From positions 22,810 through 86,809 of the forward strand of contig CAIPTO010000084.1 in NCBI GenBank assembly GCA_903867985.1: 64,000 nucleotides of DNA, given 5' to 3'. The notes under the pieces were generated by a model. The model saw only the letters and a program-made list of their open reading frames with translations. It did no database searches and was not told the origin of the DNA. Made by a program: the position numbers and the translations under genes. Shown one piece after another: positions 7,622 to 62,984 of this stretch. This stretch comes from an uncultured Elusimicrobia bacterium (GTDB lineage: Bacteria > Elusimicrobiota > Elusimicrobia > Elusimicrobiales > UBA9959). Position 1 is the stretch's first letter, and each line of letters starts with the position of its first letter.

Positions 7622-7661
7622 ATCCTCTAGTCCTCTAATCCTCTAATCCTCTAATCCTCTA
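7622..7661. repeat. Octamer tandem array (CTAATCCT family), single arm overlapping the deoB stop codon
   Basis: ctagtcct ctaatcct ctaatcct ctaatcct at 7627-7658. Confidence 0.85.
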
Positions 7662-8878
7662 ACAATCTTCCTATATTCCTTCTGCACTCCGAAAAGTTGA
7701 GCCGTCACATGCCCTATATCCGAGAGCCCGGGGCATACGCCGGTTTTAATACCACCCAGTTTCCCGTCATAGCCATTACGCGCTGCAATAAACGGCAGTG
7801 GTTCTTTGGAATGATAGCCATAATCCTCCTTATGCTCCATACCGTGATCGGCGGTGATCATAAAAAGGTCGCCTTTATCCATCCGGCTTTCAAAGAGCGG
7901 AATTATGCGGTCTATTTCCATAATGGCCTTCAGAGCGCCCGGGATATCACGCGTGTGGCCGTAGACGCTGTCCGTGTCCACTAAATTGGTAAATATGAAA
8001 GTTCCTCTGGGACGATAGATGTGTTTTGCTCCGGCCAGGGCGTTTATGGTCCCCTGTATGCAGTACGGGTTGGTGTCTTTTTTCTTAGGGTGGACGAATC
8101 GGAGGCCAAGGGCCGGATCGATGAACATTTCATGATTAAGTTTAATTTTGGCGTGATAAGAGGTGTTCACCAGGTCGCTGGTCTTACCCACAGCCACCGT
8201 CCAGACGTTATTCTCGCGCAAAATATCAACCAGCGTCTTCTGGCCGATCGGCAGCACGGCGTCGTGCCGGTTGGAGGTGCGCACAATATCCCCCCCGGCG
8301 CTCTTTATATAGGCCCGGGCAATAGCGCGGGTTATAGGAAGCCCCATCTCCATGGCCAGCGCGAAGGCGATGTCAGCTATCTTGTGCTGCTCAGCGACGG
8401 GGATCACGGCCTCGTTCATCGCCAGCTGGATGAGCGGATCACATTTGCTGGCGTAGACGATAGGTTTGCCGGTCCGCTCATGTTCCGCCGCGTTGAGCTC
8501 TATCGCCTCCATCCCGGCAGCCATCTTGTTGAAGAACGTCTTGCGGCCAATGCGCTTTTCCAGCTCGACGATGTACTTCTTCGGAAAACCGCTGTTGAAC
8601 AGGTCGTAGGTGCGGTCATCCAGCACACCCATCATCTCGCGATGGCCGACAAGGCTGTCGGCGGTGGCCGAGGCCTGAGTGAGAGCGGCGGCGTAGGATT
8701 TTTTTGAGTGTTTTGGCGCGAAGCGGCTCTTAAACCGCGGTCCGACTATTTCGCCTAAACCCAGACGAGACAGATTCGGGAGATTGACTTTCTTATTGTA
8801 GCTGGCAAGCAGGTGCTCAATGGTAGTAATACCGAGGGCGTCTATGACCAGCAGTAATGCCACAGGTGATTTTTTCAA
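7643..8878 (-). CDS. deoB: Phosphopentomutase (alkaline phosphatase superfamily)
   Basis: LLVIDALG, GHREMMG, RAIARAY, TNLVDTDSVYGHTRD, ITADHG. Likely TTG start at 8878 preceded by GGAGG. Confidence 0.8.
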   Translation of the reverse strand: MKKSPVALLLVIDALGITTIEHLLASYNKKVNLPNLSRLGLGEIVGPRFKSRFAPKHSKKSYAAALTQASATADSLVGHREMMGVLDDRTYDLFNSGFPKKYIVELEKRIGRKTFFNKMAAGMEAIELNAAEHERTGKPIVYASKCDPLIQLAMNEAVIPVAEQHKIADIAFALAMEMGLPITRAIARAYIKSAGGDIVRTSNRHDAVLPIGQKTLVDILRENNVWTVAVGKTSDLVNTSYHAKIKLNHEMFIDPALGLRFVHPKKKDTNPYCIQGTINALAGAKHIYRPRGTFIFTNLVDTDSVYGHTRDIPGALKAIMEIDRIIPLFESRMDKGDLFMITADHGMEHKEDYGYHSKEPLPFIAARNGYDGKLGGIKTGVCPGLSDIGHVTAQLFGVQKEYRKIVRGLED

Positions 8879-22524: not shown

Positions 22525-23544
22525 ATGAGGTTTAACATCTTAATATCATCGGTGCTGCTGCCGCTGTTTTTCTCGGGATTTTGCGCCTGTTCACCCGGGG
22601 AAAAATTTGACTCCTCCAAGCCCGCCGCCGGCCTGGTCTTCGATGTGGGAGGCCGCGGCGACAAATCCTTTAACGATTCCGCTTATAACGGTATAGAAAG
22701 GGCCCAGAAGGATTTTAAGATACCGATAGACTACATAGAACCCGGGGAAGGCGCAGACAAAGAATCCGCGCTCAGACAGCTGGCCTCGGGGCATTACGGG
22801 CTGATCTTCGGCACCGGCTTCCTTTTTACGGATGACATAAATACCGTAGCAGGCGATTTCCCGAATAAAAAATTTGCCTGCATCGATTACGCCGTAGACC
22901 CCTCGAAAACTATACCGCCCAACGTCCTGGCGATAAAATTCAAGGAAGAAGAAGGCAGCTTCCTGGTGGGCGCCATAGCGGCCCTGACCACCAAAACGAA
23001 CGCCATCGGCTTCGTCGGCGGCATGGACATACCGCTAATACACAAATTTGAGGCCGGTTACCGCGCCGGGGCCCTTTATGTTAACCCGAAATGCAAAGTC
23101 CTAATCGGCTATGCCGGCGTAACCGGCGAAGCCTTTAAGAATCCGGCTAAAGGCAAGGAGCTGGCCCTTTCGCAGATTGGCAAGGGCGCCGACGTTATAT
23201 TTCACGCTTCAGGTTCCACAGGCCTTGGCGTCTTTGAAGCCGCCCGGGATAAGCATATCTATGCCATCGGCGTGGATTCTGACCAATACGCGGAGGCTCC
23301 CGGCTATATCCTCACTTCAATGATCAAGATGGTGGATATCTCGGTCTATAAGACCGTCCGGGAATATCTGGACGGAACTTTTAAAGGCGGAATGCGGGAG
23401 TTCGGCCTGGCCGAGGACGGCGTGGGCTATGTTTATGACCGCAACAACAAGGATTTGATAAAGCCCGAAATCATTAAGAAAGTGGAAGAACTGAAAAAGC
23501 TGATCATAATCGGTAAAATAAAAGTGCCGAACACTAACAGATAA
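22525..23544 (+). CDS. BMP-family (nucleoside) ABC transporter substrate-binding lipoprotein
   Basis: GGRGDKSFNDSA, FKEEEGSFLVG, GADVIFHASG, AIGVDSDQ, LTSMIK. Confidence 0.92.
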   Translation: MRFNILISSVLLPLFFSGFCACSPGEKFDSSKPAAGLVFDVGGRGDKSFNDSAYNGIERAQKDFKIPIDYIEPGEGADKESALRQLASGHYGLIFGTGFLFTDDINTVAGDFPNKKFACIDYAVDPSKTIPPNVLAIKFKEEEGSFLVGAIAALTTKTNAIGFVGGMDIPLIHKFEAGYRAGALYVNPKCKVLIGYAGVTGEAFKNPAKGKELALSQIGKGADVIFHASGSTGLGVFEAARDKHIYAIGVDSDQYAEAPGYILTSMIKMVDISVYKTVREYLDGTFKGGMREFGLAEDGVGYVYDRNNKDLIKPEIIKKVEELKKLIIIGKIKVPNTNR

Positions 23545-29414: not shown

Positions 29415-29514
29415 TAAATGCCGTTTGCCTTTGGCCATTTGCCATACGCAGATTATTTAGTGACACCTTAAAAGCGTACTGCATATAGCCTATTGCTATG
29501 GCTTATGGCATGTG
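29415..29514. repeat. Inverted-arm heptamer element (CATA(C/G)GC / GCCTATG family)
   Basis: Left arm cgtttgc ctttggc catttgc catacgc ag; 27-nt spacer; right arm ct gcatata gcctatt gctatg gcttatg gcatgtg. Confidence 0.75.
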
Positions 29515-50444: not shown

Positions 50445-52403
50445 ATGGAAAATGAAAGAACATCCGATCTCCTCTCCATGAAGGAACATGAAAAAGGCTG
50501 CGTTATTGAAATTTCCGGCGGCGGCGCGCTGGCGGAAAAACTGAAAGCCATCGGCATACATCCCGGCAGACAGGTTACCAAGAGAACGCCCAAGGGCTAC
50601 AACGGACCAATCACGGTGGAAGTGATGGGTTCCAAGGTCGCCCTGGGACGCGGTATGGCAAAAAATATAACAGTGAAGGTGAGCTGCGGCATGCTCATGC
50701 TGACCGGAAATCCTAATGTCGGGAAGAGCGTCGTATTCTCCCGTCTGACCGGCTTGGACGTCATTTCCTCCAACTATCCCGGCACCACGGTAGCTTACAC
50801 AAGCGGCACGGCGGTGCTGGGCGGCGAGCATTTCTCCGTTATAGACGTGCCGGGCACTTACAGCCTCTCTCCCGCCAATAAAGCCGAAGAAGCCGCCAGG
50901 AAGATGATATTAGAGGACGGCAAGGAACTTTTGGTACATGTGCTGGACTCCACCAACCTGGAACGGAATCTTTTTTTCGCGCTGGAACTTATGGGTCTCG
51001 GGACCCCTATGATAATCCTGCTGAATAAGTCCGATATCGCACGGCGCCGTGGTATCAGCATCGATGCCGCCAAACTTGAAGCCGTGCTGAAGATCAAAGT
51101 GATACCATTCGTGGCGACCACCGGCGAAGGGCTCAAAACTCTCAACGATACCGTGCGGCTCTTCCGGGCGGGCGGTCTCCCGCAATACGACGCACCTCCC
51201 ACCTCCGCCGACGAAAAATGGCGGTTCATAGGCAAGCTGGCCGCACAGTGCCAGACCATATCCCACAAACACCCCAGCCTGCTCGAAGGCCTTGAGGACT
51301 TCACCTCCAGGCCCTCCACCGGGATCCCATTCGCTTTCGCGGCCATGATCGCCGTTTTCCTGGCCGTGAGGACGACCGGAGAAACCCTGATCACTTATGT
51401 GCTGGACCCTGTTTTCAACAACGTCTATATCCCCGCGCTGGCCAAAGCGTCCGACTTCCTTCATTTAAGCGGGATCATGAAGGCATTGCTGCTGGGCGCA
51501 TCAATGAAACCGATGGAAGACTTCGGTTTGCTGACCACCGGACTTTATATTCCCCTGGTAAGCGTTATGCCTTATCTGGTGGCGTTCTACCTGGTTCTCG
51601 GTTTCATGGAGGATCTGGGCTATCTTCCCAGACTTTCGGTCCTGCTGGACAGCGTGATGCACAAGCTGGGCCTGCACGGGTACGGAACTATCCCCCTGAT
51701 GCTGGGACTCGGCTGCAAAGTGCCGGCCATCCTCGCCGTGAGAGTGCTTGAGAACAGGCGCGAGCGCGTTATCGCCACGGCACTAACTTTGGCCGCCGCT
51801 CCCTGCATGCCCCAGAGCGCCATGATCTTAAGCGTACTGGCGCCTTATCCGATCAGGTATACGGCGGCCGTTTTCATAGCCCTGGCGGCCACCGGCGCGG
51901 CGGCGGGCCTGGCGCTTAACCGGATCCTTAAGGGCGAAACCCCGGAAATTTTTATAGAGATACCCCCATATCAGATACCTTCCCTCACGGTATTGTGGTC
52001 CAAAACCTGGCTGCGACTGAAGAATTTCCTTGTAGAAGCGGTGCCGATGATATTCGTCGGCGTCCTGATAATAAACATTCTCGGTATGACCGGCGTCCTG
52101 GGCGCTGTTACCGAGATCTTTAAATACCCCGTAACTCATTTTCTGGGTCTGCCGGCCGACACGGTCTCGGTAATGACGCTCGGCTTTCTGAGAAAGGACA
52201 TTTCCATAGCCATGCTCATACCCTTCGGGCTCGGACCGGGGCAGCTCGTTGTAGCCTCGGTATTCCTGACACTGTACCTGCCCTGCCTGGGCGCTTTTAT
52301 GATCACAATAAGGGAATTAGGGCTCAAGGACTCGATGGGCGTATTTGCGCTCAACTTCTTCACCGCCGCTTTATTGGCGACGGCTCTGAATCTATTGGTA
52401 TAA
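50445..52403 (+). CDS. feoB: Ferrous iron transporter: FeoA domain fused to FeoB
   Basis: N-terminal SH3-like LKAIGIHPG...VALGRGMA; GNPNVGKS, NYPGTTV, DVPGTYSL, NKSD; gate domains EDLGYLPR and GLGCKVPA. Confidence 0.92.
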   Translation: MENERTSDLLSMKEHEKGCVIEISGGGALAEKLKAIGIHPGRQVTKRTPKGYNGPITVEVMGSKVALGRGMAKNITVKVSCGMLMLTGNPNVGKSVVFSRLTGLDVISSNYPGTTVAYTSGTAVLGGEHFSVIDVPGTYSLSPANKAEEAARKMILEDGKELLVHVLDSTNLERNLFFALELMGLGTPMIILLNKSDIARRRGISIDAAKLEAVLKIKVIPFVATTGEGLKTLNDTVRLFRAGGLPQYDAPPTSADEKWRFIGKLAAQCQTISHKHPSLLEGLEDFTSRPSTGIPFAFAAMIAVFLAVRTTGETLITYVLDPVFNNVYIPALAKASDFLHLSGIMKALLLGASMKPMEDFGLLTTGLYIPLVSVMPYLVAFYLVLGFMEDLGYLPRLSVLLDSVMHKLGLHGYGTIPLMLGLGCKVPAILAVRVLENRRERVIATALTLAAAPCMPQSAMILSVLAPYPIRYTAAVFIALAATGAAAGLALNRILKGETPEIFIEIPPYQIPSLTVLWSKTWLRLKNFLVEAVPMIFVGVLIINILGMTGVLGAVTEIFKYPVTHFLGLPADTVSVMTLGFLRKDISIAMLIPFGLGPGQLVVASVFLTLYLPCLGAFMITIRELGLKDSMGVFALNFFTAALLATALNLLV

Positions 52404-52501: not shown

Positions 52502-53749
52502 ATGACTTTTTTAAAGGACATGAAAACCGGGTTGACCAGGAATGTGACTTTTCTGGGCATTGTAAGCGGTCTCACAGATATATCGAGTGAGATGCTCTAC
52601 CCGATAGTGCCTATTTTTCTCACCTCTATACTTGGCGCGCCGATGAGTACAGTGGGGTTTATAGAAGGAGTGGCGGAATCCACCGCCAGCTTCCTAAAGA
52701 TTGCCGGCGGTATGTGGTCGGACAAGGTCGGACGGCGCAAACCATTTGTCGTGGCGGGCTATAGCCTCTCGGCTATCTCAAAACCTGTACTTGCCCTTGC
52801 GTATACCTGGCATTTTGTCCTTTTCTCAAGATTCATAGACCGCGTGGGGAAGGGCCTGCGTACTTCGGCCCGCGACGCGATAATCGCCAACTCCACAGAC
52901 AAGCAACACTGGGGAAAGGCCTTCGGTTTCCACCGGGCTATGGATACGATGGGCGCGGCCCTCGGCCCGCTGGCGGCCCTGCTTATGCTCAATATGATGC
53001 CGCCGGCCGCGCCCGACTACCGCCTCATCTTCATAATCGCTTTTGTTCCCGCCGTACTGGGCGTTTTTGTCCTGATACATTTCGTAAAAGAATCAGCCAA
53101 TAGGGTGGAGGGTTCAGGGTATAGGGTTCAGGGTCAAGGCATTCCGAATAACTCCACCCTAAACCCTAAACCCTCTCCCCTAGCCCCTACCCCTATGTCT
53201 TCCGATTTTAAAACCTTCGTCGGCCTGTACGCAATCTTCGCCCTCGGCAATTCAAGCGATGTCTTCCTAATTATGAAAGCTAAAAGCGTCGGCTTCACCA
53301 CCACCCATGTTATACTGGCTTACACCGGTTACAATCTGGTCTACGCTTTCCTTGCCGCGCCGGCAGGCTGGCTATCAGACAAACTGGGCAGGATCAAAAC
53401 CATGGCTTTCGGCTTCCTGGTCTTCGCCGCCGTTTACCTGGGCTTCGCTACTGCGGATAAGGGATGGATGATCTGGGCACTGTTCGCCCTTTACGGTTTC
53501 TACGGCGCGTTCAACGAGGGTATAGCCAAAGCCGTCATCTCGCATCTTAGCGCGGATGATAATCGCGCCACCGCTATGGGGTATTTTCAGGGCTCTCTGG
53601 GCTTCCTAACCTTCTTCGCCAGTACCATGGCCGGCTTCCTTTGGACCAGATTTTCTCCCGCAGCGCCTTTCCTGATCGGAGCCGGCTGCGCCCTAGTTTC
53701 CACAGCAGCGTTGATAATCTGGAGCAGAAAAAGACAATTAGCATTTTAA
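52502..53749 (+). CDS. MFS transporter carrying an in-frame repeat element in its central loop
   Basis: SGLTDISSEM, GMWSDKVGRRKP, DRVGKGLRTSARDA, GFHRAMDTMGA, GWLSDKLGR. Confidence 0.9.
   Translation: MTFLKDMKTGLTRNVTFLGIVSGLTDISSEMLYPIVPIFLTSILGAPMSTVGFIEGVAESTASFLKIAGGMWSDKVGRRKPFVVAGYSLSAISKPVLALAYTWHFVLFSRFIDRVGKGLRTSARDAIIANSTDKQHWGKAFGFHRAMDTMGAALGPLAALLMLNMMPPAAPDYRLIFIIAFVPAVLGVFVLIHFVKESANRVEGSGYRVQGQGIPNNSTLNPKPSPLAPTPMSSDFKTFVGLYAIFALGNSSDVFLIMKAKSVGFTTTHVILAYTGYNLVYAFLAAPAGWLSDKLGRIKTMAFGFLVFAAVYLGFATADKGWMIWALFALYGFYGAFNEGIAKAVISHLSADDNRATAMGYFQGSLGFLTFFASTMAGFLWTRFSPAAPFLIGAGCALVSTAALIIWSRKRQLAF
53101..53195. repeat. Inverted-arm heptamer element (nAGGGTn / nACCCTn) inside the MFS coding sequence
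   Basis: tagggtg gagggtt cagggta tagggtt cagggtc ... cacccta aacccta aaccctc tccccta gccccta. Confidence 0.88.
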
Positions 53750-53752
53750 TAA

Positions 53753-53773
53753 CACCCTAAACCCTGAACCCTT
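53753..53773. repeat. Single-arm heptamer array (nACCCTn) between the MFS stop and the next start
   Basis: cacccta aaccctg aaccctt. Confidence 0.7.
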
Positions 53774-53777
53774 TCTT

Positions 53778-55070
53778 ATGACCACCCTACTTAAAGAAGT
53801 CCTCAAGCATGAAGTCTACCCGGCCATGGGCTGTACCGAGCCTGTGGCTGTGGCGTTCTGCGCCGCGAGCGCGGCAAAACTGCTCGGGAATGAAAGGATC
53901 CTGACGGCGGAAATAAAAACAGATGCCGGCACCTACAAGAACGGCCTGGCTGTAGCTATCCCAAACACCCGCGGAGCAAAGGGCAACCTGCTTGCCGCCT
54001 CGCTAGGCGTTCTCATAAGGGATCCCGGCCTTAAAACGGAAATGTTCAAAAAGATTTCACCTACTCTGCTTAAAAACGCCAAAGCTCTGATAAAAAACGG
54101 AAAGATAAGACTGGCAGTGGAATATACCCGGCGCGGAATTTACATAGAGACCCGCCTTAAGACCGCGCGTCATAGCGCCGTATGCGTGGTCGCGGGCGGC
54201 CACGGCAATATCATACTGCTAAGGAAGGACGGCAGGACCCTGTTTAAATGCAACCCGGTAAAGCCCGGAAAAAATCACGCCGCCTACAAAAACCTCCTCA
54301 AAAAATCTAATTTCAAACTGCTCTTCAAAGAAGCGGAACGGGCGGACGCCGAAGATCTGTCTTACATAAAAACAGGCATAGAGCTTAACATCAAGGCCGC
54401 TAAAGAAGGCCTAAAACTGAAAAAAGTCGGTTACTATATCTCCGACCTTATAAAAAAAGGCTATTTGAAAAGGGATATCCTGTCCGTAGCAAAGCTCACC
54501 ACCTCCGCCGCCACCGACGCGCGCATGGCCGGAGCCACGGTAAAAGTCATGTCCAGCGGAGAATCCGGCAACCAAGGCGTTGTCGCAATACTGGTCCCCT
54601 ATCTGGTGGGCAAGGCTTTTAAGATAAAAGAGACTAAAGTATTACGGAGCATAGCCCTTTCTCACCTTGTGAATTCCTACATAAAGGTCTTCACGGGGGA
54701 ATTGGCTCCCATCTGCGGCTGCGCCGTGGCCGCCGGCGTCGGCGCCTCGGTGGCCGTGGTCTACCAGCAAAAGGGGACTGATCTTAAAGCCGCAACGAGG
54801 GCGGTAAACACCGTGATCAGCGACATCGGCGGCATGCTTTGCGACGGCGCGAAAAGTGGTTGCGCTCTCAAGGTCGCATCCTCGGCCGATTCCGCTATCC
54901 GCGCCGCCTACATGGCGATAAACGGGGAGGGCATAACGGAACTCGAAGGCTTTATCGGCGCCACCGCCGAAGAAACAATAAAAAATATGGCCCGAATCTC
55001 AAAGATGGGAATGGATAAGGTTGACAGGATAATCCTGGGCATCATGTCGTTGAAGAAGCTTAAAAGCTAG
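53778..55070 (+). CDS. L-cysteine desulfidase / serine dehydratase-like Fe-S protein (YhaM/CyuA-like)
   Basis: PAMGCTEPVAVA, SSGESGNQG, ICGCAVAAG, MLCDGAKSGCALK. Confidence 0.88.
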   Translation: MTTLLKEVLKHEVYPAMGCTEPVAVAFCAASAAKLLGNERILTAEIKTDAGTYKNGLAVAIPNTRGAKGNLLAASLGVLIRDPGLKTEMFKKISPTLLKNAKALIKNGKIRLAVEYTRRGIYIETRLKTARHSAVCVVAGGHGNIILLRKDGRTLFKCNPVKPGKNHAAYKNLLKKSNFKLLFKEAERADAEDLSYIKTGIELNIKAAKEGLKLKKVGYYISDLIKKGYLKRDILSVAKLTTSAATDARMAGATVKVMSSGESGNQGVVAILVPYLVGKAFKIKETKVLRSIALSHLVNSYIKVFTGELAPICGCAVAAGVGASVAVVYQQKGTDLKAATRAVNTVISDIGGMLCDGAKSGCALKVASSADSAIRAAYMAINGEGITELEGFIGATAEETIKNMARISKMGMDKVDRIILGIMSLKKLKS

Positions 55071-55867: not shown

Positions 55868-55954
55868 TACGACAGCAAGACAGGAAGACAGTACGACAGG
55901 GAGCAGTGAACATTACTGCCGCACTATCCCGCTGCCGCACTGCAGCGCGATCCT
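55853..55954. repeat. Inverted-arm octamer element (ACGACAGT family, same as 21829)
   Basis: Left arm acgatagt acgacagc aagacagg aagacagt acgacagg; right arm actgccgc actatccc gctgccgc actgcagc. Confidence 0.82.
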
Positions 55955-62740: not shown

Positions 62741-62984
62741 AGATGCAAAGCAATCCAGTAATTTAGACGCAAAGCAGTCCAGAGGCAAAGCTGTTTAGCG
62801 ATTTATATGCAAGGCAATCTAGCAATTTAGAGGAAAAGTAGTTTGGATGTCAAGCAGTTTAGCTAAACAGCTGAATCGCTGTGCTTCTAAGTCGCTAGCT
62901 AGCCTTACTTCTAAACTGCTTTGCATCTAGATGGCTTTACGTCCAGACTGCCTTGCATCTAGACTGCTTTGCCTCTAGACTGCT
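62741..62984. repeat. Large inverted-arm element of 16-nt units (two alternating octamers), about 245 bp
   Basis: Five AGA(T/G)GCAAAGCAGT(C/T)(C/T)-like units plus AGCAATTT-like octamers in strict 8-nt phase (62741-62876), then inverted AGACTGCTTTGCATCT-like units (62897-62984). Confidence 0.9.

Follow-up and report, generated by a model that had tools for sequence, protein, structure and literature searches.

An in-frame fold-back repeat of AGGGT heptamers in the interdomain linker of an MFS transporter gene from an uncultured Elusimicrobia bacterium

Analysis of a 64,000-nt stretch of DNA from an uncultured Elusimicrobia bacterium (hereafter the window; positions 22,810 to 86,809 of contig CAIPTO010000084.1, C84:22810-86809) revealed a 94-nt inverted array of heptamers at 53101-53194, inside a gene for a transporter of the major facilitator superfamily (MFS) and in the segment encoding the linker between transmembrane helices 6 and 7 (TM6-TM7). 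This element is probably a copy of the AGGGTnn heptamer-array fold-back repeat of this lineage, lying in frame in a tolerant linker of the transporter and replacing the native linker there. Coordinates are window positions unless another contig is named. The genome from which the window was taken (G000) is a 2.6-Mb, 147-contig assembly with 52.5% G+C, and the public records nearest to it are metagenome-assembled genomes of Elusimicrobiota; C-numbers denote its contigs, and G002 is the sister genome.

The host gene and the three parts of the element are arranged as follows.

52502..53749, + strand: MFS_1 transporter gene, 415 aa, host of the element (open reading frame [ORF] and Pfam MFS_1 match).
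53101..53135, + strand: G-rich arm, five heptamers (TAGGGTG GAGGGTT CAGGGTA TAGGGTT CAGGGTC), encoding RVEGSGYRVQGQ.
53136..53155, + strand: unique 20-nt spacer AAGGCATTCCGAATAACTCC, the hairpin tip, encoding part of GIPNNS.
53156..53194, + strand: C-rich arm, five to six inverted units, encoding TLNPKPSPLAPTP.

The AGGGT cores of the G-rich arm start at 53102, 53109, 53116, 53123, and 53130, and the C-rich arm reads ACCCTAA ACCCTAA ACCCTCT CCCCTAG CCCCTAC CCCT, that is, three ACCCT units followed by units of the CCCCT type. A preliminary description of the window had noted five nAGGGTn units, a short spacer, and five inverted units in the TM6-TM7 loop; this architecture was recovered, with five to six inverted units. 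The end coordinate given there, 53195, had to be corrected by one position, as it is the A of the ATG codon of Met232 (53195-53197), which directly abuts the 3' end of the C-rich arm. The first 10 nt (TAGGGTGGAG, 53101-53110) are exactly inverted at 53152-53161, as described earlier, and longer arms of 27 nt (53101-53127 and 53156-53182) are 85% complementary. Tandem Repeats Finder reported a period of 7 at 53109-53134 and 53156-53174. The pattern AGGGTNNAGGGT had eight matches in the window against 0.08 expected from shuffles, and all eight fell within the element or within a half element beyond the end of the gene (53754-53772). Folding of both arms as RNA gave -43.4 kcal/mol (z = -3.1 versus shuffles), and the hairpin of the G002 copy was also stable (-40 kcal/mol). 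Read off the sequence, the G3N4 x5 pattern of the G-rich arm would be a candidate G-quadruplex motif. Rfam returned only sub-threshold matches to microRNA hairpin families, which were attributed to the generic hairpin shape and rejected.

The element encodes residues 200-231 of the transporter, and the ORF reads NRVEGSGYRVQGQGIPNNSTLNPKPSPLAPTP across it without a stop. The earlier claim of a stop-free translation was thus upheld, and the frame in use is the only open one of the six, the other two forward frames holding four and two stops. Predicted tryptic peptides across the element include VEGSGYR and VQGQGIPNNSTLNPKPSPLAPTPMSSDFK. The host protein matched Pfam MFS_1 (PF07690, E = 7.6e-44), and no NCBIfam model reached its cut-off. 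An AlphaFold2 model built with 33 homologs had a mean pLDDT (predicted local distance difference test) of 88 and an MFS-like helical fold, in which helix 181-194 is joined to helix 234-249 by a coil (residues 195-233), with pLDDT below 50 for residues 202-220. Since the coil lies between two helices in the model, the element encodes the interdomain TM6-TM7 linker, and this cytoplasmic linker of a 12-helix MFS transporter is predicted to be disordered.

Searches of the whole genome showed that the heptamers of the element belong to a dispersed family. G000 contained 35 loci with at least two adjacent exact AGGGT units and 42 loci with at least three in-phase AGGG(G/T) units, 11 of which were full palindromes; triple-unit matches to AGGG[GT] numbered 75, versus 0-4 for permuted control cores. 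Like the element itself, which is built of head-to-tail 7-nt units with at least three per array and far above chance, the family has an intergenic bias and forms convergent pairs capable of stem-loops. Most copies lie in intergenic spacers, often extending from just past a stop codon to a few nucleotides before an ATG, and the MFS copy is the single one of the 42 that is embedded in a credible ORF with at least 40 codons on each side. With about 35-42 dispersed and nearly all intergenic loci, and only 0-4 arrays for control pentamers, the earlier view that the segment is repeat DNA rather than codon bias was borne out. A second candidate for an AGGGT array in an ORF (C144:2831) was left uncounted, its spanning ORF being likely a spurious Arg-rich antisense frame.

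BLAST of a 105-nt segment against the genome yielded only 16-36-nt array matches and no full-length paralog, and the spacer of the MFS copy occurred once. These two results indicate that the element was built from units and not copied from a master element. Neither terminal repeats distinct from the arrays nor a target-site duplication was visible flanking 53101-53194. In the genome's 11 full palindromes, all but 11 of the 66 frames contained a stop. The majority of such events inside genes must hence be purged, in keeping with the finding of one intragenic copy among about 40.

The order of the two arms was fixed. The AGGGT arm came first in 14 palindromes and second in none, and the same held for the AGTG (15 to 0), AAGCG (8 to 0), and GCCAT (3 to 0) arms of other families, giving a single order (40 to 0) over the four families tested. 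Because palindromes read alike on both strands, this bias is no strand effect but a genuine asymmetry, and it calls for a mechanistic or functional explanation. Unit families with the same architecture included GCCAT, CACT/AGTG, ACGCTTT, AAATCGT, and octamers. A central AAGGAG(C/T)TCCTT, corresponding to a Shine-Dalgarno-like sequence plus its complement, was common to palindromes of unrelated families (C29:55338, C34:2922, C114:4124, C27:8802, C34:26557, and C43:8520); the MFS copy is without it.

The linker was compared in 120 close homologs by measuring the distance between FVKE and PM(T/S)SDFK. About 100 of them had an Ala/Pro-rich, recognizably conserved linker of 25-29 residues (e.g., FVKEAAAAPKAPGAAPAARTPMTSDFK), versus 44 residues in the window protein, and the DNA of these plain ortholog linkers showed no 7-nt periodicity. 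The window linker keeps just SAN after FVKE and a Pro before Met232, a nearly invariant residue that is conserved in all orthologs without any element. Because only these three residues and one Pro are kept, the element appears to have replaced the ancestral linker rather than merely being added to it. The expectation raised earlier, that extra non-homologous residues would be found here, therefore held as far as length and the absence of the element from about 100 orthologs are concerned, whereas simple addition to the native linker did not. No distant homolog carried the same peptide without nucleotide periodicity.

Only one other genome, G002, carried the same element; its protein shares 93% amino-acid identity with that of the window. 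Different arrays occupied the same linker in other relatives. CACT heptamers were present in the linker DNA of G001/P0014 and P0016, and the linkers of P0002, P0003, and P0004 probably also carry CACT arrays, judging from their SPLATNHSPLTTA-type peptide. The linker of G008 contained an ACCCT arm, and full AGGG(G/T)/CCCCT palindromes were found in the linker DNA of G019, P0110, and G016/P0093; P0100 has a 44-residue linker that, judged from the protein only, appears to be of the palindrome type. In a maximum-likelihood gene tree with the linker columns left out, the window protein and P0001 grouped with the CACT-array proteins in a clade of 12 rows, the remaining palindromes fell in a separate 8-row clade (clade B), and many plain-linker lineages lay between the two. 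The tree required at least two changes of state for the palindrome and at least five for any array, and forced monophyly of the palindrome carriers was rejected (difference in log-likelihood 121, approximately unbiased test p = 0.008). The 3' flank of the window gene was 79-90% identical to its own clade and 70-78% identical to the clade B palindrome carriers, and neither a flank transfer nor a larger recombination tract from clade B was visible in this downstream flank. The matching palindromes in the two clades may have arisen in parallel at a preferred site, or a short patch confined to the element may have been transferred.

The element was also recovered in independent assemblies. Contigs X1, X3, X4, and X5 (four samples of one lake study), X2 (2017), and X6 (2016) carried it unchanged in sequence and length, and X8, a contig of another study (2025), covered the G-rich arm with no difference. 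Two of the matching contigs, one of 6.2 kb from a lake study (2020) and one of 3.6 kb from a freshwater study (2017), were identical across the element. The identical element was thus present in at least three separate studies, and the agreement of independent contigs shows that it is not an assembly artifact. Contigs from eight runs, which hide rare variants, contained no length variant. RNA runs containing the gene were looked for, and none was found. Run X1 additionally contained a contig (record 3, window 52853-53580) from a relative with about 15% divergence, in which 65 other letters replace 53092-53188; two linker states of the MFS gene therefore coexist in one community.

Selection was evaluated in one genome pair, G000 and G002. 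Outside the linker, dS was 0.48, dN 0.036, and omega 0.075, which indicates strong purifying selection and a gene that is functional in both genomes. The element contained no indel between them and has been retained in both.

A screen of all period-7 and period-14 arrays of G000 identified at least two further genes that host in-frame arrays in variable loops. In an FAD-dependent oxidoreductase (C77:22727-22757, L098; orthologs L099-L111), GCCAT heptamers occupy the GFLEAY-PEVF loop; the same loop holds an octamer array in G002, GCCAT heptamers in G001, G016, and G041, CAGCCTT heptamers in G004, and no array in G045, G054, G003, and G006. TsaB (C40:19169-19199, L112; orthologs L113-L125) contains an octamer array together with four ACGCTTT heptamers in frame; the octamer part is 24 nt longer in G002, palindromic CAGTG/CCAGT arrays occupy this loop in G001 and G019, no array is present in G009 and G006, and distant relatives are without residues ~145-170. 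Together with the varied arrays in the MFS linker of relatives, these genes strengthen the suggestion of the preliminary description that such elements can enter coding DNA and create new peptide sequence. Two other in-frame arrays were noted, one of the AAATCGT type in MetH (C146:40007-40031; linker peptide KPEIVNRKPEIVG) and one with a period of 14/15 in HolB, the DNA polymerase III delta' subunit (C83:89375-89405).

Immediately downstream of the MFS gene, the window contains two further features.

53753..53775, + strand: intergenic half element with the C-rich arm only, three ACCCT units, CACCCTAAACCCTGAACCCTTTC, 91% identical to 53155-53177.
53778..55070, + strand: downstream gene, 430 aa, serine dehydratase alpha chain-like, PF03313 (ORF and Pfam match).

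The half element, whose presence at 53753 had been correctly reported, fills the 28 nt that separate the MFS stop codon (53747-53749) from the next ATG (53778), about 600 nt downstream of the element. The serine dehydratase alpha chain-like gene is a conserved neighbor of the MFS gene and was seen in relatives too. In these (L072-L096), the spacer between the two genes (53747-53778) held a differing array in almost every case, the observed states being ACCCT x3 (G000), ACCCT x4 (G002), ATCTT, CACTG, an AAGGCTG palindrome, or none. Between G000 and G002, the half element changed from three to four units and differed at several positions. The spacer array and the MFS-linker array share one unit family in G000, in G002, and in the P0016 contig. 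The unit CCCTAAA (53156-53174 and 53754-53765) equals the plant-type telomere repeat, and bacterial arrays containing it could be flagged by automated contamination or telomere screens.

Synteny on the 5' side of the MFS gene was broken. A fused FeoA-FeoB gene lies there in the window (50445-52403), a pseudouridine synthase and/or dehydrogenase gene takes this position in relatives (L072, L095, and L096), and the first ~1.8 kb of L071 and L072 did not align. Other arrays in the window were five copies of the octamer ATCCTCTA (7622-7662), 3.9 copies of the heptamer TGCCATT (29419-29445), 3.6 copies of the octamer GACAGCAA (55871-55899), and a 240-nt array with a 16/64-nt period (62743-62984). 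Units of the GACAGCAA type encode the peptide GSKTARQQD, which was found again in TsaB and at the C-terminus of a polyketide/fatty-acid-synthase-like ORF.

Counts of matches to the pattern AGGGTNNAGGGTNNAGGGK in whole genomes showed that the AGGGT family is patchy among relatives.

G000 (own genome): 35 matches; G001 and G002 (same genus): 36 and 37.
G003-G006 (same genus): 0.
G008 (another genus): 393; G019 (same genus as G008): 141.
G010 (same family): 24; G028 (same order): 32.
Small-genome family of the same order: 0.

Homologs of the Y1 transposase (PF01797) were found in 26 of 41 genomes, including two Y1_Tnp genes in G000. Neither G000 gene had a detected heptamer array within 1.5 kb, and Y1_Tnp did not co-occur with the AGGGT family across the 41 genomes, G004 and G006 having the gene without arrays. 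A transposase flanked by repeats and co-occurring with them, as in REP/REPIN-RAYT systems, was thus not found, and a RAYT/Y1 transposase as the mobilizer was rejected on present evidence.

We propose that one copy of the AGGGTnn fold-back repeats, which normally fill intergenic spacers, took over the TM6-TM7 linker, converting an Ala/Pro-rich ancestral linker of ~16 residues into one of 33 residues. Ribosomes would read through the element, giving a new low-complexity linker peptide in a transporter that stays functional. Survival may be explained by a disordered linker that tolerates a change in length, by the single stop-free frame, and by a linker region that keeps the reading frame; the element would persist because the linker tolerates it and because any 7-nt change would be lethal to the gene. 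The arrays would be assembled from units in the manner of a simple-sequence repeat, not transposed as a fixed sequence, and the same array-forming process may have struck this linker and the loops of other proteins repeatedly in related lineages, with selection retaining frame-preserving outcomes only.

Several observations weigh against this interpretation. The element differed between G000 and G002 at 6 of 95 nt, whereas 56 of 198 fourfold-degenerate sites differed (binomial p = 7.5e-8); synonymous differences amounted to 3/25.5 in the linker versus 98.5/277.7 outside it (Fisher p = 0.015); and the inner 54 nt (53123-53176, spacer included) were invariant, with 9 differences in the 30 nt just upstream. 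This slow divergence is suggestive, though not proof, of constraint at the nucleic-acid level or of recent short-patch exchange. The palindromes of G000, G019, and P0110 share their start (21 nt after the Phe codon), their 5+5 units, and their 132-nt span, and such agreement in two clades is not obviously predicted by random insertion followed by filtering. Moreover, we infer translation of the segment from its open frame and the purifying selection on the gene. The hairpin itself might be functional and selected as DNA or RNA, either by causing a translational pause between the N- and C-terminal domains, which would help membrane insertion, or by supporting internal initiation at Met232, as in the intergenic copies abutting start codons, so that the C-terminal half would also be made separately. 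This reading, which we regard as unlikely, is favored by a divergence 4-5 times slower than that of fourfold-degenerate sites and the invariant core, by the stability of the RNA hairpin in both genomes, by a C-rich arm that stops at the Met232 ATG just as intergenic copies stop a few nucleotides before start codons, and by the change in unit number of the nearby half element between the same two genomes. However, no compensatory base changes were found in the element between these genomes, the six differences being unpaired or one-sided; its deficit relative to the whole-gene rate of 11% was not significant (p = 0.08); Met232 is conserved in all element-free orthologs; no ortholog is split into two ORFs; and a single genome pair was compared. 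Transposition of a fixed element is argued against by an arm order that does not vary, by the replacement of native sequence, by spacers that are unique, and by families that switch at a single site. It is conceivable, if decidedly unlikely, that the arrays are written on the spot by a strand-specific, unit-iterating process where DNA is prone to break; a short template might, for instance, be copied again and again onto the two 3' ends of a double-strand break before these are joined. Such a process would explain why the purine-rich arm comes first, why the linker was replaced instead of interrupted, why each locus has its own spacer, why unit families differ in one loop even between sister genomes, and why start, unit number, and span match in two clades; if it operates, a repair-like repeat generator repeatedly rewrites protein linkers in these bacteria.

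A classical miniature element of the Rickettsia palindromic element (RPE), MITE (a small transposable element with inverted repeats), or REP kind, mobilized as one defined sequence by a transposase (for instance a RAYT-type Y1 enzyme) and inserted in frame, would share with our element the palindromic build, the dispersed and mostly intergenic loci, and the patchy phyletic spread, and two Y1_Tnp homologs are indeed present in the genome. Such an origin is very unlikely given that other loci share units alone, with no full-length copy, no second copy of the spacer, and no distinct terminal inverted repeats or target-site duplication visible; that no heptamer array was detected within 1.5 kb of the Y1_Tnp genes, whose presence does not track the family; and that unrelated unit families share the architecture, unlike one mobilized sequence. 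Also very unlikely is a contingency locus in which the gain or loss of one unit would shift the frame and switch the transporter by phase variation. One-unit slippage would indeed cause a frameshift, as 7 is not a multiple of three, and unit numbers differ between the sister genomes in intergenic arrays and in the TsaB array, but the latter change is of 24 nt and keeps the frame. Here, the units are degenerate, with neighbors differing at the variable positions, which disfavors slippage; the length is the same in G000, G002, and all contigs across the element, in which rare variants would be invisible; and the element lies in a mid-gene linker, away from the 5' end. An ordinary low-complexity linker that evolved in place might be considered, since MFS central linkers vary in length and composition and the native linker is C-rich (Pro and Ala codons) and could seed C-rich repeats. 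This explanation, like that of an assembly artifact unrelated to the repeat family, is effectively refuted by the chance estimate (eight matches versus 0.08), by the same units in the same arm order at about 40 other loci, and by the independent contigs; inverted arms are also unexpected from codon repetition.

The interpretation as an in-frame heptamer-array repeat can be compared with known systems. Cyanobacterial short tandemly repeated repetitive (STRR) heptamers form tandem arrays that are patchy in distribution, with several unit families per genome, and the repeats of Borgs are direct, not inverted, with in-ORF units that are multiples of three. Our element resembles the tandem repeats of Borgs in that these are fast-evolving in-ORF repeats making new disordered segments (PMC9879509), and differs in its 7-nt unit, which means that each unit is read in all three phases, and in belonging to a primarily intergenic family of a bacterial chromosome. 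The closest published relatives are simple-sequence repeats made of G-rich heptamers, described for Xanthomonas (GGGAATC) and Nostoc (GGGGA(C/T)T) by Rehm et al. (2015, PMC4692102). In that study, these too are dispersed, G-rich 7-nt arrays with a preference for about four units and an intergenic bias (68% intergenic in Nostoc), lie near stop and start codons, frequently occur as convergent pairs able to form stem-loops, have a G-quadruplex-capable G-rich strand (a motif only in our case), and are intragenic in a minority of copies. Our system differs in its phylum (Elusimicrobiota), in a unit (AGGGTnn) with two free positions, and in a complete inverted pair that is predicted to be read through in a conserved gene whose linker holds other families in relatives; the study gives intragenic copies as counts and is not known to analyze them as protein insertions.

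The comparison with RPEs made in the preliminary description holds for the effect, namely an in-frame, stop-free palindromic repeat that is absent from most orthologs, but not for membership, since no full-length copy, terminal repeats, or target duplication was found. As portrayed in PMC10969869, RPEs are in-frame palindromic repeats in unrelated genes that are translated and compatible with fold and function; they are, however, ~150 bp long, and their families keep a consensus over the full length as well as a conserved peptide, whereas our element has 94 nt, degenerate 7-nt units, a unique spacer, and no full-length paralog, and appears to have replaced a native linker. TAACTGA heptamer repeats of Beggiatoaceae, cyanobacteria, and Bacteroidetes (MacGregor 2015, PMC4679880) likewise form tandem arrays with patchy distribution, lie directly 5' of start codons, and occasionally occur in ORFs where the frame allows. 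Almost all of them are direct repeats, with one indirect repeat reported (PMC4679880), whereas here the inverted pair is standard and the purine-rich arm always comes first. REP/BIME/REPIN-RAYT systems share the short, high-copy, intergenic hairpin palindromes (PMC3116915, PMC3733652), along with Y1 homologs in G000; no conserved 20-40-nt palindrome sequence was found here, and the arrays are not near Y1_Tnp genes. In-frame repeat insertions and heptamer arrays are therefore each already known; what is new is that an inverted heptamer repeat built from arrays would be read in frame, that this occurs in a new phylum, and that one linker has been occupied recurrently.

Such segments inflate linker lengths, break low-coverage assemblies, and can mislead alignment and annotation. 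In this uncultured, free-living bacterium, the element offers a clean case, with good controls, of the conversion of intergenic repeat DNA into protein sequence: the ancestral linker is given by about 100 orthologs, the host gene is under selection, and the element has been kept across a speciation event. The lineage is a natural system for studying the generation of disordered protein segments and the origin of heptamer arrays, such as those described in cyanobacteria and Xanthomonas.

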